A DNA stretch of 64,000 bases from Candidatus Yanofskybacteria bacterium. Lineage in GTDB: Bacteria; Patescibacteriota; Minisyncoccia; 2-02-FULL-40-12; IGHO2-12-FULL-4. Every line of letters starts with the position of its first letter. Position 1 is the stretch's first letter. Location: the NCBI GenBank assembly GCA_016185525.1, contig JACPNK010000006.1, positions 22,728 to 86,727 of the forward strand, read 5' to 3'. The notes under the pieces were generated by a model. It worked only from the letters and a program-made list of their open reading frames with translations. It searched no databases and was not told the origin of the DNA. Both the position numbers and the translations under genes were made by a program. Of the stretch, positions 18,538 through 57,515 are shown in pieces.

Positions 18538-19557
18538 TCAAATTTTTATTTCCACCACGTCGCCGTCTTGGACTATGTAATCTCGGCCGACAAGTTTCAA
18601 GGTGCCGTTTTCGCGTGCTTTGCCCCACGAGCCAGCCTCCACTAACTTTTGCCAATTAATAACTTCTGCTCTAATGAAAAGTTTTTCAAAGTCAGTATGA
18701 ATAGCCCGGGAAGCTTTGGGGATAGGTGTATTTTTGGGCGCGGTCCAGGCCCGGGTTTCGTCTTCCCCCGTGGTTAAGAAGGTGATTAAATCCAGAAGCT
18801 TATAACTTTTGGAAATCAGTTCATCTAAACCGGAGTGTTCCCGGAAGACTTCTGTGAGGTATAAATCTTTTTCTTCCGGAGAGGCTTCAGACAGCAGAAG
18901 TTCAAAATTAGCGGACAAGACGACATATTGTGATTCGCCCATGGCTTTGATTAGCTCCGGTTCCGGTTGCCAGCGGTTTTTAACCTGCTCTTCCGAAGCG
19001 TTTAAAACATATATCACTTTTTTTGAAGCGAGCAGTTCCAATTCCGGCAATCCTGCCTGACCGGCAGACAGGTCTTCATTCTTGTTTTTTTTGGCCTTTC
19101 TTTTTTCTATGGATTGCAAATCGGCCAATGCTAACTCTGTCTTGATTATTTCTATGTCATGAACCGGGTCAACTTTGCTGTGGACGTGAATTATATTCTT
19201 GTCTTCAAAAACTCTTACCACATGAGCGACTGCATCCACCTCTCTGATGTTGGCCAAAAACTTATTGCCCAAACCCTCGCCTTCAGCGGCGCCTTTGATT
19301 AGTCCGGCAATGTCTATGAACTCAATTGCTGTCGGCACTATTTTTTTTGAATGAGAAAGTCCGGCTAGTATTTTCAGTCTTTCATCCGGCACCTCAACTA
19401 CGCCTACATTGGGATCAATCGTCGTAAAGGGGTAGTTGGCAATGGCTATTTGTTTTCCTGCCCCGTGGCCGCCGTCAGGCGACTTTACGGGGTTAGTTAA
19501 GGCCTTAAAGAGGGTGGATTTACCTACATTAGGCAGGCCTACGATTCCGATTTGCAT
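18538..19557 (-). CDS. ychF: Ribosome-binding ATPase YchF
   Basis: [40 protein letters not shown]-terminal TGS domain; carries two short palindromic in-frame inserts. Confidence 0.97.
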
Positions 19558-19683
19558 ATGCGGTGAATATTAGCAAAAATCCAGTAGATACGCCAATTTT
19601 TTGAGCTTGACTTTTTGCTGAAAAGGTATATGATTAAGGTATAGTTAGGATAGTTCCTTTATTTACTACTTGCCCGCTTCGAC
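19540..19683 (+). repeat. About 143-bp direct repeat (ychF start plus divergent promoters), second copy 23914-24056
   Basis: Near-identical alignment from TACGATTCC to CCCGCTTCGAC. Confidence 0.9.
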
Positions 19684-19828: not shown

Positions 19829-20422
19829 ATGCGTTGGAATCCAGTTGAACAAGTACAGGATGTCGTGAACAAGTTCGGGACCGAGGAGCGCGTCAAGCGT
19901 TTCCAGTCCGGCGAGCTCGTGCTCGTGGAACGGACGGACCCTCGTGCAGTCGCGATGGTCCTCAACTTCGAGCGGAAGGTCTCGGTGGCCAGCCGCCGGT
20001 TCGTCACCGGCGAGAGCTTCACCAAGAGCAATCCCAAGGTGAAGTTTGGCCACATTGACGAGAAGGTCGTCAAGCTTTTTGGCAAGAGCCAGGACGTGCC
20101 GGCCGGCGAGCTGGCCACACACACGCTCTTACTGCCTAAGCACGATCCCGAAATCATGGTCGCTCTTGGACCTCAGTCCAGGCGTTTCATCAAGCTGGGC
20201 CAGTTCTACCAGTTGATCGAAGCGCAGGGCCAGGGCCAGGAAGGCTCCCTTCTCGTCAACGGATGCGCGAACATTGCGTACATTCTTGACGAGAACGGCG
20301 CGCCTTGGGCGGTCAGCGCGTACTGGGGCCCGATCGATGGCGACTGGCGCATGTGCGTTAACTCGGTTGCCCGCCTGCACGCGTGGCTTGCCGGCAGCCG
20401 GGTTCTCTCGCAAGTCGGATAA
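19829..20422 (+). CDS. DGR target protein 1 with C-terminal variable region
   Basis: GC-rich ORF with AGGAGG RBS; 3' end matches TR at 20701-20810. Confidence 0.9.
   Translation: MRWNPVEQVQDVVNKFGTEERVKRFQSGELVLVERTDPRAVAMVLNFERKVSVASRRFVTGESFTKSNPKVKFGHIDEKVVKLFGKSQDVPAGELATHTLLLPKHDPEIMVALGPQSRRFIKLGQFYQLIEAQGQGQEGSLLVNGCANIAYILDENGAPWAVSAYWGPIDGDWRMCVNSVARLHAWLAGSRVLSQVG
20304..20413 (+). repeat. DGR variable repeat VR1
   Basis: 110-bp ungapped match to TR1; by manual count 19 of 20 mismatches are at TR adenines. Confidence 0.95.
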
Positions 20423-20700
20423 GAACTGGGTTCCTTGGGAACTTGGTTCTTGGGCCGGCAGTAGCTTCAACGCTGTTGCCGGCTCATTTTTATTTCTATA
20501 AAATACAACTTGGATATTAGGCGAATCTGCTGATCTCCAATTGGATATCAGCGGCCGAACTCTAAGCGCGCATTCAGATTGCTATCGGAGCTTAAAAACG
20601 AAGATACTTGGTGCGGAACACTATGTGAGTCAGCTCACGAATTCGATGCAGTCCCGAGAGTATTCAACGGACAGTGGTAATGGTGGTGTTTCGCACAGAG

Positions 20701-20810
20701 CTTGGGCGGTCAACGCGAACTGGAACCCGAACTATGGCGACTGGAACATGAACGTTAACTCGGTTGCCAACCTGAACGAATGGAATGCCGGCAACCAGGT
20801 TCTCTCGAAA
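20701..20810 (+). repeat. DGR template repeat TR1
   Basis: AAC-rich copy of VR1. Confidence 0.95.
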
Positions 20811-20820
20811 TTCTCTTCGT

Positions 20821-21168
20821 TCAAAAACTCCTTTGCGGAGTTTTTGTTTGTTTTTGCCAGCCGCCGAGCATTTTGCCTATCTCATTCAGATGATTCGACA
20901 ATGTTACATATTTCTTTACATCAAGTATTTCTATTTCCCATGCAATCTGTAATATAAATTTCAACATATCAAATGAGTCCGAGGCCTTGGCAAGATAAAA
21001 TCCTTTTTGTTCACGGTTTTTATGAGCTGCAATAAATAAATGTTCCGTGGTTTCGATAAACAGGTTATCAATTTTTAGACCAATAGTATATCGATTGATT
21101 TTCTCTAATCTAATAAAATATTCATGCCAAACTTTGTAAACCACAATCAACTTTTGGATAATCGGCAA
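20821..21168 (-). CDS. avd: DGR accessory variability determinant Avd (four-helix bundle), antisense to TR and RT
   Basis: RYTIGLKID...LKFILQIAWE...EIGKMLGGW; likely true ATG at 21211, in frame only if the G10 tract is G9 or G12. Confidence 0.88.
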   Translation of the reverse strand: MPIIQKLIVVYKVWHEYFIRLEKINRYTIGLKIDNLFIETTEHLFIAAHKNREQKGFYLAKASDSFDMLKFILQIAWEIEILDVKKYVTLSNHLNEIGKMLGGWQKQTKTPQRSF

Positions 21169-21177
21169 AGTAGCGCT

Positions 21178-21187
21178 GGGGGGGGGG
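21178..21187. repeat. G10 homopolymer in the avd/RT head-to-head overlap
   Basis: CT-GGGGGGGGGG-CGTAG read directly from sequence. Confidence 0.9.
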
Positions 21188-21232
21188 CGTAGAAGGATTG
21201 AATTTGGTCATAGTTTTGATGAGGTTATTAGT

Positions 21233-22177
21233 TTGGAAAATTTACTGGAATCCTGGAAAGAGTTCCTGAAAGGCAAACGCAAGAGAAAGGATGTCCAGGA
21301 GTTTGGCCTTTTTCTGATGGATAATATTATAGGCCTGCACAACGATCTTGACAATCATACATATAACCACGGGCCATATCAAGCGTTTCGCATAAATGAT
21401 CCCAAACCGAGACAGATACACAAGTCATTGGTCCGTGACCGGTTGCTCCACCATGCTATTTATCGTCAACTCTATCCGTTTTTTGATCGAATGTTTACTG
21501 CCGACTCCTTCTCATGCCGACTTGGCAAGGGGACACACAAAGCATTAAACAGGTTCAGAAGTTTTGCATTCAAAGTCAGCAAAAACAACACCAGGACGTG
21601 TTGGATTTTGAAATGTGATATCAAGAAGTTCTTTGAGAATATTGACCACGAGGTTTTGCTTAGCATCTTAAAAGAATACATCCGTGACCGGAACACTATC
21701 TGGCTTTTAGAGAGAGTGATTTACAGCTTCTCATCCGCTCCAGGTAGGGGATTGCCTCTCGGCAATCTCACCTCGCAGTTGTTCGTGAATATCTATATGA
21801 ACGAATTTGATCAGTTTGTGAAGCACAATTTGAAGGCAAAATACTATATCAGATATGCCGATGACTTTGTGGTCTTGTTTCAAGACAAATCTTGGCTCGA
21901 AGAGATGCTTCCTAAAATGGGTGACTTTCTGGAAGAAAGATTAAAACTTGAACTTCATCCAGACAAGGTTTTTATCAAAACGTTTGCTTCGGGAGTTGAC
22001 TTCCTTGGCTGGGTTCACTTTCCAGATCACAGAGCATTGAGAACGACTACCAAGAAGCGGATGCTTAAAAGGATTAAGGCAAAACAGGATATTAGCACAA
22101 CCAAATCTTATTTGGGACTTATTAGTCATGGAAATGCTAAAAAACTAGAAAAAGAGATATTAAGGATTTCTGAATAA
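21233..22177 (+). CDS. DGR reverse transcriptase
   Basis: RDRLLHHA, LKCDIKKFF, GLPLGNLTSQ, YIRYADDF, GVDFLG; no maturase or HNH; frame stays open upstream through the G tract, likely ATG at 21124 if G9 or G12. Confidence 0.95.
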   Translation: MENLLESWKEFLKGKRKRKDVQEFGLFLMDNIIGLHNDLDNHTYNHGPYQAFRINDPKPRQIHKSLVRDRLLHHAIYRQLYPFFDRMFTADSFSCRLGKGTHKALNRFRSFAFKVSKNNTRTCWILKCDIKKFFENIDHEVLLSILKEYIRDRNTIWLLERVIYSFSSAPGRGLPLGNLTSQLFVNIYMNEFDQFVKHNLKAKYYIRYADDFVVLFQDKSWLEEMLPKMGDFLEERLKLELHPDKVFIKTFASGVDFLGWVHFPDHRALRTTTKKRMLKRIKAKQDISTTKSYLGLISHGNAKKLEKEILRISE

Positions 22178-22406
22178 TTTCTGTAGAGGGGGAAGTTTTA
22201 TTGTAAACTGAAACGGGATGTATTTGAGCCGGTTATCGTCAAATCCATGTCGCATTGCGTTCCGACTATACCAATCTGGAGCATTTTGGTAATTTATCAT
22301 TTTAAACCCACCTTCTCAAGTTAACTTGCTATCATCAGGATCTTATGATTTAATTCCGATATAATTACTAATGTAAATTTAGTGAGTGTTTGGTAAATTA
22401 TTATTT

Positions 22407-23791: not shown

Positions 23792-24543
23792 TAGCCTGCT
23801 CAAATAATTGCTAAGGATTACCAAATAACTTCTGGACAGGAGGTAATTTTTTTTGAAACTAAAAGGTATCAGTTTTACCGGCATATTACCATAGCTGTAT
23901 CGCATTGCGTTCATACGATTCCTATTTGCATATGCGGTGAATATTAGCAAAAATCCAGTAGATACACCAGTTTTTGAACTTGACTTTTTGCTGAAAAGGT
24001 ATATAACTAAAGTATAGTTAGTATAGTTCCTTTATTTACTACTTGCCCGCTTCGACTCCTACTACCGTCTCGTTCGTCCTCGCAGGTAGCAAAAACCTGA
24101 GACTCTTGGTTCTTGGACCCCGTTCAGTTTACTGAACGGGGTCGTTTTCTTTGTAGCTTTTCAACTTTAAGCACTTTTACAGGCCTTGCCTGTCAGAATA
24201 CAATGAAATACCTCGCAAACCTGTGCAATCAGACGACCAATTCAAGAAAGTTCTGGCCCAAAACAATGCTTTACCACAGCAATGACCCTGAAGGCGTTGA
24301 AATAACGAGAGCCTTTACGACAAGTTTTGAAAAAGAAACTCTGCCTAAATATAGTGAGTAACTGGGTAGGGTAATCTGCTCTAATCAAAATAAAACCAAC
24401 CAACAAAAAAAACACCCCTCCGAGCCATATGTTGATATCTAATTTTCTATATGGTATATAATGAAGTTAAGGAAAATTTATAGTATAGAGCGTTGGTTAT
24501 AGGTAATGTTGACTTTTCTAGTTTACTAATTTATAATATTGCT

Positions 24544-25388: not shown

Positions 25389-25493
25389 CTAAGGATTACC
25401 AAATAACTTTTGAGCAGGAGGAAGTTTTACTGTGAAACGGAATGGCATGAATTTAACTGATGAGCCGCTTGAGCTATGTCGTATTGCGTTCAT

Positions 25494-25513
25494 ACAATTC
25501 CGATTTTTAACAT
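25494..25513 (-). pseudogene. Displaced original ychF 5' end (MLKIGIV)
   Basis: ATG TTA AAA ATC GGA ATT GTA then TGA; TG-C-TACAAT -10 just upstream. Confidence 0.7.
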
Positions 25514-27509: not shown

Positions 27510-27605
27510 AACCAACCAACCAACCAACCAACCAACCAACCAACCAACCAACCAACCAACCAACCAACCAACCAACCAACCAACCAACCAACCAACCAAC
27601 CAACC
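27510..27605 (+). repeat. (AACC)24 tetranucleotide repeat after an ATG
   Basis: 96 bp perfect repeat starting 9 nt after ATG 27501. Confidence 0.95.
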
Positions 27606-27668: not shown

Positions 27669-27838
27669 TTATTTTTCGGTTAACCAAAACCAGAATTGAT
27701 TTTTTAGTTCTCGTGACAATTTATATGAATTAGCATGACTTAAAACACCGAGATACGTTTGCAACGATTGTTCAAGAGTTTCAGTAGAAATAAGGTCTTG
27801 CTTTTGGCGGCTGGATAAAATCAACCCGCGATTGTTAA
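27669..27838. pseudogene. Fused remnants of DGR RT C-terminus (minus) and avd C-terminus (plus)
   Basis: Minus strand QSLQTYLGVLSHANSYKL resembles RT1 KSYLGLISHGNAKKL; plus strand GGWIKSTRDC* resembles Avd1 GGWQKQ. Confidence 0.7.
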
Positions 27839-27880
27839 AGAAATATCCTCCAAGCGGAGGATATTTCTTGTAAGAGAGAA

Positions 27881-27998
27881 AGAAGTTCCGGGAGGCACCA
27901 ACGCCCACGTTGTTGTTGCGATTGCCGTTCCAGTTATTGATGTTGAGGCCGTTCTCGTCGAAGTTGCCGACACACGAAACGTTGTCAGCGTTGGCCGA
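27881..27998 (-). repeat. DGR template repeat TR2
   Basis: AAC-rich 118-bp copy of VR2. Confidence 0.95.
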
Positions 27999-28355
27999 AA
28001 AGAACGCATAATGCCCATCTCCATCTATGTCACCGGGGATTTAGGTTTACCACCCAAGCGGGCCTATATCCTATCTCCCCTGAATTTTATTCGGGAGCAT
28101 CTGCTTTTTACGGCAGAACCTCCACTAAAGACAAGCAAGAAGTTCAATCTCAACTTTTTATCGCGCACTACCGTAATCCGTAAACGACGGTATTCCGGCG
28201 ATTCCTCAAAAGAAGAGGTGTCCGCGAGGTGAAGCCGTAACCGCATCTGCATTAGCAGACAAAGAAATTGTATCAAGTATTATTATAAAAACAAAACGAG
28301 CCTTCGGCGCTGCGAAAAAAAATTCGCGCCGAAGGCTCAAGCAAGGCTTCAAGGT

Positions 28356-29210
28356 TCAGAACTTCCGGGAGGCACCAACGCCCACGTTGCCGGCGCGACC
28401 GCCGTCCCAGCTATCGATGCGGAGGCCGCGCCCGTCGAAGCGGCCGACACACGAAACGTCGCCAGCGAAGGCCGAGTCGGTCTTCACTGTCCGCTCCGCG
28501 CAGGCTGCCCATTTGGATCCGTTGGGACGAACACCAGTCTTACGGAAGACGAGGATGTCCTTGGTCGTTTCCATTATCGTCGATGGCACTTCGTACTCGG
28601 GCGGAAGCATCGCCACCTGCTCTTCGGGCGTCTTGTTCGTCGAGTTAGGAACGATCTCCGTATGGAGCAGGTAATAGCGAAGCCGCATGGTCGCCACATC
28701 GGTGTGGGGCTGGCCTCCGTGCCAGGGGTTGCTGTTGAAGTAGAACTTCGGCTGGCCCGTTGCCGGATGCAACTGAAGCCACTTGGCCACCGTGAGAGGC
28801 GAACCGTTGATGGCGGTCAGGCCCAGGAATGCGAAGTGGCAGTCCTTCACCACCTTGCCGCAGAGCGGGCAGGTGGAATTGAGGATGTCCTCACCCCACG
28901 GGAACTTTCCGGCGTCGCGGATCTGCTTCTTCGTGAACTTGGCGTCGTAGTAGCTCATCCAGTCGGCAACATCGAAAATGTTGCGACCGAGAACCATACG
29001 AGCCATGCGCGATTCGATAGAACCGATGAGGCCTTTTCGCAACATCGCCTGAGCGATGCGGCGAGTGTACTCGCTGTCGGTGCGGAAGAGATCGAAGAGA
29101 TCGCGGGGATTGCCTCCCTCACTGGCAATCGCTTTCTCAAGCGACGCCACGCTTTCCTCGAACTCACCCTTGGTCATGGTCCAGAGACCGCTTGTCTTGG
29201 CTTGTGTCAT
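28356..29210 (-). CDS. DGR target protein 2
   Basis: GC-rich ORF, AAGGAG RBS before MTQAK; C-terminal VR ending GVGASRKF. Confidence 0.9.
   Translation of the reverse strand: MTQAKTSGLWTMTKGEFEESVASLEKAIASEGGNPRDLFDLFRTDSEYTRRIAQAMLRKGLIGSIESRMARMVLGRNIFDVADWMSYYDAKFTKKQIRDAGKFPWGEDILNSTCPLCGKVVKDCHFAFLGLTAINGSPLTVAKWLQLHPATGQPKFYFNSNPWHGGQPHTDVATMRLRYYLLHTEIVPNSTNKTPEEQVAMLPPEYEVPSTIMETTKDILVFRKTGVRPNGSKWAACAERTVKTDSAFAGDVSCVGRFDGRGLRIDSWDGGRAGNVGVGASRKF
28358..28475 (-). repeat. DGR variable repeat VR2
   Basis: By manual count 20 of 21 mismatches to TR2 are at TR adenines; the other is near the 3' end. Confidence 0.95.
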
Positions 29211-29480
29211 AACACATCTCCTTTTTTTGTCGGTTTGCTCTCCATGTCCTTTAGGGACTCTTGAGAGCGGATGCCCCATGCCGTGGGGCTGCGGTCCTGC
29301 CTACCGGCAGGCAGGCTTGTCTCAGAAGTTGAGACAAGTATGCTGGAAACCATTGTTTAGGCATCCAAAATGCTTGTCTCAAGTAGAACCTTATTGTAAG
29401 GAACTACATCATAATTATATCATCTTGTAAGTGTGCCTGTCAATAGGGTATTTTACTCGGGACTAGGGAATGGACTGGGT

Positions 29481-56904: not shown

Positions 56905-57515
56905 ATGAAAGTCGTTATTGCCACAAAAAATCCGGGCAAGTTGAGGGAAATCAAAGAATTTTTGGGTCCTGACTTTGAGTGTGTCTCTTTTTTAGATTTT
57001 GAAGATTCTCCCGATATTGAAGAAACCGGAACAACTTTTTTGGAAAACGCCATTTTAAAGGCTAAAACTTGTTTTGAATGGTCCCGCCTGTCGGTCGGGC
57101 AAGCAGGTTTGCCTTCAGTTGCTGATGACGGCGGACTGGAGATAGACTTTTTAAACGGCGAGCCCGGAATTAAAAGCCGGCGCTGGCCGGGTTATGAAGC
57201 TACCGATGAGGAACTTATTGAACTGGCACTGAGTAAGCTTCATGGCATTCCTTGGGAAAAAAGAACAGCCTCTCTGGTTTCGGTCGGAGTATTTTATGAC
57301 GGCAAAAATACAATAAACGTTGTAGAGAAAATCAAAGGCTTTATTACGGAAAACAAAGCGTCTCGCTTTGAAAAAGGCTATCCTTTCAGATCAATTTTCT
57401 GGGTGCCGGAATTTAAAAACTTTACCAAGACTTAGCCAAAGAGGAACACGAAGACATAAATCACCGCCGAAAAGTTTTCCTAAAATTGGCAAATATGGTA
57501 AAAGCGGGTATATGA
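56905..57515 (+). CDS. rdgB: Non-canonical purine NTP pyrophosphatase with apparent 1-nt frameshift near 57415-57420
   Basis: ATKNPGK, EETGTTFLENA, ADDGGL; one extra A restores INHR and a TGA overlapping the murD ATG. Confidence 0.85.

Follow-up and report, generated by a model that had tools for sequence, protein, structure and literature searches.

A poly-G tract read on both strands of a Patescibacteria DGR: a candidate phase-variation switch for avd and the reverse transcriptase

Intragenic repeats drive phase variation in Neisseria and Haemophilus as well as in Campylobacter, and in the DGR of phage BPP-1 of Bordetella the elements avd, TR and brt are co-oriented. For Campylobacter, the matched passages of PMC3401435 describe poly-G phase tracts with a modal length of nine, in which insertions are favoured at G8 and deletions at G11. 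The corresponding passages on BPP-1 place avd, TR and brt consecutively in one cassette (PMC5758913), and those on bRT state that its N-terminal extension contacts Avd and that catalysis requires Avd (10.1101/2023.10.23.563531). The DGRs of CPR bacteria (clade 2) were assigned an activity below average in the passages of Roux et al. 2021 (PMC8144416) that treat them. A switch based on repeat length would bear on the question of how DGRs hold the destructive side of their mutagenesis in check.

Here we analyzed a window of 64,000 nucleotides from Candidatus Yanofskybacteria (contig JACPNK010000006.1), in which a run of ten G residues lies where avd and the reverse transcriptase (RT) gene overlap on opposite strands. 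Based on comparison with homologous loci, this run is probably a slipped-strand phase-variation switch that gates a DGR mutator through both avd and RT.

The G10 tract, its two reading frames and the surrounding DGR

The G10/C10 tract (21178-21187) lies within the 88 bp over which the 5' ends of avd and RT, two divergently oriented genes that each begin inside the other, overlap in antiparallel orientation, and is one base out of frame for both. An earlier note on this DNA had described the head-to-head overlap with both genes out of frame, and recomputing the frames gave the same result: at G10 the plus-strand RT frame from ATG 21124 runs for 22 codons to TAG 21190-21192, and the minus-strand avd frame from ATG 21211 runs for 29 codons to TGA 21124-21122. 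Since each of these starts is one base (mod 3) off its own downstream ORF, a tract of G9 or G12 would open avd and RT together, just as had been claimed. Read on the opposite strand, ATG 21211-21209 is a conserved RT His codon (CAT), and ATG 21124 is avd His codon 15. Because each start is in this way an antisense His codon of the partner gene, the codon registers of the two frames are locked together, and a single change in length opens or closes both.

The full RT reading (21124-22177, plus strand, from ATG 21124) is interrupted at the tract, and its downstream ORF (21233-22177) is intact, matches the RVT_1 profile (E 3.9e-25) and has the Bordetella DGR RT as its best PDB match (8ub7; query 13-300, E 3.4e-44). 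The segment 5' of the fallback start TTG 21233, which the earlier note had called RT-like, aligned with residues 8-14 of that Bordetella RT. The full avd reading (20821-21211, minus strand, from ATG 21211-21209) is likewise interrupted at the tract, with an intact core (21168-20821) that begins with TTG and matches bAvd (E 1.2e-12), with PF22296 above its cut-off; a PDB sequence search with avd returned a chance match only. A TTG is available at both fallback sites in the window (avd 21168, RT 21233), and the one in avd could yield a near-complete core.

The locus has the constituents of a DGR, namely a DGR-type RT, an adenine-specific TR/VR pair with the VR at the 3' end of the target, and Avd. 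Target gene 1 (19829-20422, plus strand) encodes 197 aa with no Pfam family and carries VR1 (20304-20416) at its 3' end, and 19 of the 21 mismatches between VR1 and the template repeat TR1 (20701-20813, plus strand) are at TR adenines. The arrangement of avd and TR is as in the nearest homologues. A hairpin directly after TR1 (20822-20846, plus strand) overlaps the avd stop codon and is a putative terminator-like element or component of the DGR RNA; the TR region folded no better than shuffles did (z 0.02). Located 3' of VR1 are a GC-rich hairpin (20451-20486, plus strand) and then a promoter-like site (20476-20504) that could drive a TR/RT transcript.

A second pair on the minus strand, TR2 (27881-27998) and VR2 (28358-28475), has 20 of 21 mismatches at A and is contained in a DGR remnant (27669-29279, minus strand) that consists of a target, VR2, TR2, a hairpin and a C-terminal piece of RT, with avd and most of RT gone. 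Just past the RT piece is an (AACC)24 microsatellite (27510-27605). Potentially, TR2/VR2 could depend in trans on the RT and avd described above, the latter being the only avd in the genome. A second RT (contig C8, 33025-33765), which is 71% identical and adjoins three copies of an 85-230-bp repeat, is without residues 1-64, and no TR or avd was found beside it. Given the single avd and the missing residues of the contig C8 RT, all DGR activity in this genome would come under the control of the tract. Repeated junction elements (19540-19683, 22161-22277, 23812-24056 and 25390-25506) flank the DGR and neighboring modules (TPR, PBECR2 nuclease and Fic genes) near ychF, which suggests a cassette-insertion hotspot.

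G10 is the sole G/C run of ten, and hence the longest, in the 812-kb genome, the remaining long runs being one C9 and three 8-mers. The C9 (50494-50502) directly follows the stop codon that ends a 654-aa ORF and belongs to a hairpin-like intergenic stretch. Contigs of runs X1, X2 and X3 (depth 16.5, 10.5 and 36) bridge G10 unchanged with no other letters and no gaps, so that it is not a simple assembly slip, whereas in run X4 two contigs end beside the tract; all four runs are from one study that may be the source of the assembly. No within-strain length variant was present in the contigs of the four runs, which drop rare variants. In run X3 a relative that is ~85% identical carries one extra G. 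Fifteen of the 161 loci compared below stop within approximately 100 bases 5' of the RT anchor, several of them exactly at or beside the G run (L006, L017, L028, L032, L053, L069, L072, L099, L103, L124, L127, L146, L147, L153 and L157). The tract seems to be a point of breakage in assemblies, consistent with either mixed lengths per sample or problems of reads with poly-G.

Homologous junctions and what the tract controls

Homologues were taken from two scans, as the best 80 of 551 and the best 80 of 553 confirmed RT relatives, with titles that were mostly Patescibacteria. Including the window there were 161 loci, of which 146 had an adjacent antisense avd and 138 remained after near-duplicate RTs were removed. 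Frames were counted in 124 loci, after setting aside 8 without a main repeat, 2 with N and 4 with unreliable anchors. Viral contigs scanned with the junction pattern gave no matches.

A survey of homologous overlaps for a G tract of variable length, which the earlier note had proposed as a check, produced a clear outcome. A run of G8 or longer is present in 116 of the 138 listed non-redundant junctions (11.5 kb), versus three G/C runs of at least eight in 712 kb of flanks, and the tract is therefore not a product of chance. The main repeat among the 138 listed junctions is a G run of 6-14 in 121 (mode 10) and a 2-, 4- or 7-base repeat in nine; these replacements include no unit of three, and G-free or G-poor repeats (CT, GA, GT) are among them. 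The other eight have neither repeat type by the rule of the script, three of them still with G6-G8 and five tract-less. As assembled, 28 of the 124 listed loci are in frame and 52 and 44 are out by one or two bases. The in-frame share is below one third (p 0.01, with p values across loci overstated because the RT tree is weakly supported), and in 95 of the 96 out-of-frame loci the gene bodies show no break over the sequenced extent. Of the five tract-less loci, four are in frame. One programmed ribosomal shift, which would have a fixed direction, is excluded because the two out-of-frame phases are about equally common: 52 loci would need one direction, 44 the other and 28 none.

Evidence that translation crosses the tract is broadest for avd. 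The RT His codon that provides the avd start is CAT in 98 cases and CAC in four, versus a ratio of 1072:801 elsewhere in the same RT genes. Between the avd ATG and the tract, 0 of 91 loci have a stop in the avd register; the remaining frames have one in 36 and 77 cases, and so do 848 of 2682 control windows. An in-register ATG with an open path to avd is found in 109 of the 124 loci, versus 14 and six in the shifted frames. A canonical avd start 3' of the tract is present in 68 loci including the window, mostly as TTG at the first core Leu, and is lacking in 56; at this codon, L1, Leu is encoded by TTG in 50 of 95 cases versus 340 of 1977 elsewhere. The window and L001 are both out of frame, and in this pair, the only one usable for the comparison as others were saturated or misaligned, avd has a dN of 0.058 and a dS of 0.62. 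Two sigma70-like sites inside RT are predicted avd promoters on the minus strand (21326-21354, 11/12 matches; 21382-21354, 10/12 matches), and such sites occur at these offsets in 65 of 138 homologues versus 28.9 ± 4.4 in 60 synonymous shuffles. A plus-strand promoter-like site (21134-21162, 9/12) was not taken as real, about four such sites being expected by chance. One sub-clade (L020, L055, L057, L065, L118, L122, L134 and L158) no longer has the His codon from which the avd start derives; some members have an ATG nearer the tract and others have none in register. These comparisons point mainly to avd as the target of the tract across the clade.

The dependence of RT on the tract is confined to one class. 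Among the 124 loci, RT has its own ATG 3' of the tract in 81, GTG or TTG in 12 and no start in 31, with the window among the 31. An in-register ATG beyond the tract with no stop between is present in 30 of the 31 loci without an own start versus 18 of the 81 with an own ATG, and the RT register across the initial avd codons contains stops in 0 of 31 versus 38 of 81. The RT ATG has been recruited at several sites (avd codons 15, 20, 6, 5, 18 and 25). On the RT tree the class is scattered and requires 20 changes for 30 rows (shuffled mean 27.1), of which well-supported branches force only three. No canonical RT start exists down to the first conserved helix in 27 of the 31; a TTG is present there in three, the window among them. 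These data support joint control of avd and RT as a recurrent addition in a quarter of loci, the window presumably included. The stochastic mutator switch put forward in the earlier note is therefore supported in part: the dual-frame geometry is real and the comparative data favor phase variation, but clade-wide it would be mainly an avd switch, given that 81 of 124 loci have an RT ATG after the tract. Since the window belongs to the 31-locus class, a joint switch is supported at this locus.

Mutability of the tract and competing explanations

Near-identical loci differ in tract length. L108 and L164 have one mismatch and one gap in 1934 bp, the gap being G10 versus G11; the sole gap in 3691 bp between L031 and L113 is ten bases long and inside a GT repeat; and L107 and L110 have a two-base difference at the tract. 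All three pairs are OFF versus OFF with no ON/OFF pair among them, and may include assembly differences; pairs at 100% identity were left out as possible re-deposits. L011 (in frame) and L090 (out of frame), with RT bodies 98% identical, were considered and rejected as a switch pair as their junctions differ. No match to MutS_I, MutL_C or NucS_C was obtained in a profile search of this genome, which is estimated to be complete, and MutS_I was above cut-off in three of 101 genomes of the class. Taken together, a repeat with a non-triplet unit sets the frame within the 5' coding region, its length varies between near-identical copies, and the gene bodies of out-of-frame copies are intact and under selection.

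In view of these data, the preferred reading of the tract as a phase-variation switch would operate as follows. Replication slippage in a host without mismatch repair would flip the tract frequently, and targeted hypermutation would be on only in cells whose tract had slipped to 9 or 12. This ON minority would make Avd and RT and have its VR rewritten at adenines, and descendants that slipped back OFF would keep a useful variant stable. Across the clade the switch would act on avd, with joint RT control added recurrently. We infer both the frequent, reversible flips and their effect on DGR activity.

The earlier note had also considered the system OFF in this assembly. The genes are indeed out of frame, but this need not mean silence, given the avd TTG at 21168 and the fact that out-of-frame pairs change their VR at TR adenines. 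L013 and L097 (both G10) have 21 differences in 5921 bp, all in the VR opposite TR adenines, and in L138 and L140 (both G9) 17 of 17 VR differences are opposite TR adenines. Such change at an unchanged out-of-frame length fits a transient ON minority as well as it fits leakage.

A leaky, low-output setting is possible because of this out-of-frame diversification, the lack of an ON/OFF pair and the avd TTG fallback. By this explanation an out-of-frame tract would be maintained on purpose, and full-length Avd and RT would be made at a level of a few percent by transcriptional slippage or ribosomal frameshifting on the run or by weak TTG starts; all cells would mutate slowly, and DNA flips would be a side effect. 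We regard it as unlikely, yet by some distance the most serious of the alternatives, as it would account for the deficit of in-frame consensus sequences (28/124), for the enrichment of TTG at avd L1 and for TR/VR fidelity being equal in ON and OFF loci (non-adenine mismatches in 18 in-frame versus 75 out-of-frame loci scored, p 0.42). Conversely, the 2-, 4- and 7-base replacement repeats are typical of DNA slippage, and the matched passages of PMC5009743 describe bacterial transcriptional slippage on A/T runs. Weak starts would have no codon to use in the 56 loci without an avd start 3' of the tract or in the 27 of 31 joint-control loci without an RT start before the first conserved helix, and a G10 tract without mismatch repair would be expected to slip in DNA anyway.

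It is very improbable that the tract has a non-coding role, as an RNA structure, G-quadruplex or DGR-RNA element, or serves as a Pro/Gly linker, with the frame incidental and both proteins started at the downstream TTGs. The TTG at both fallback sites of the window would suit such a role, and transcription of TR and RT likely takes in the plus strand through avd as well. However, repeats without or nearly without G replace the run, and selection for leaders without stops and for upstream ATGs, seen on both strands, would be pointless unless translation crosses the tract. Moreover, only 11 of the 124 loci have TTG as their RT fallback codon, and a start at TTG 21233 would lose the part that matches bRT residues 8-14.

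Equally hard to credit, and largely refuted, is that this is a decaying pseudogene or that the true tract is G9 and G10 an error of sequencing or assembly: homopolymers are error-prone, the runs may be the source of the assembly, and rdgB/Ham1 is also frameshifted by one base near its 3' end (window ~57410-57435, near 57420), a frameshift that the earlier note took as a hint of homopolymer errors and that is present in the sequence but sits at an A5 run instead of a long tract, while against this stand the gap-free bridging by three separately assembled runs, the 96 of 124 homologues that keep intact bodies while out of frame, with either phase represented, the excess of dS over dN in avd and the recent VR changes in out-of-frame copies.

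Returning to the phase-variation switch, a broader proposal is that a second-order mutator is built into Patescibacteria DGRs, in which one repeat read on both strands toggles RT-Avd in a minority of cells, and that joint RT control arose repeatedly once RT had lost its own start and taken an antisense avd codon as its ATG. We consider the arguments for and against this proposal to be evenly balanced.

Relationship to known systems

If the switch operates as proposed, it would explain the lower apparent activity of CPR DGRs, the active subpopulation could be recognized in the sequence by the tract, which is ~760 bp away from the variable region, and gene callers would be systematically cutting short CPR avd as well as many RT genes. 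Control of two antiparallel genes by one repeat would also be an unusual gene architecture.

Our literature search found no account of the tract, but Paul et al. 2017 was outside its reach, so an earlier mention is possible. That paper reportedly mentions poly-G tracts in CPR DGRs; if it does, the tract would be less new, but probably not the coupling of the two strands. The tract is not described in the matched passages of PMC8144416, PMC5758913, PMC11661182, PMC8632793, PMC10053308 and two 2026 preprints.

Like the DGRs of Patescibacteria/CPR (PMC8144416; Wu et al. 2018, PMC5758913), as far as the matched passages describe them, the locus has RT, Avd, TR, VR and adenine-specific differences; the tract, the frame switch and the RT/avd overlap are absent from those same passages. 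With BPP-1 (bRT-Avd, PDB 8ub7) it shares a homologous RT and an Avd of the bAvd family. Unlike in BPP-1, avd is antisense, sits between TR and RT, shares 88 bp with the latter and contains the repeat.

The closest parallel to the tract itself is with the SSR contingency loci of Campylobacter jejuni. As in the matched passages of PMC3401435, a G/C run of 8-11 is near the 5' coding end and the frame is set by its length, and the mode of 10 among the DGR tracts matches the modal nine reported there. Further similarities to such loci are length variation in near-identical copies, the mostly in-frame state of repeat-less loci and a host without MutS/MutL. There are two differences: the gated product would here be the mutation machinery, whereas in contingency loci it is a surface antigen, and one repeat would here gate two genes on opposite strands by means of their codon-registered overlap.
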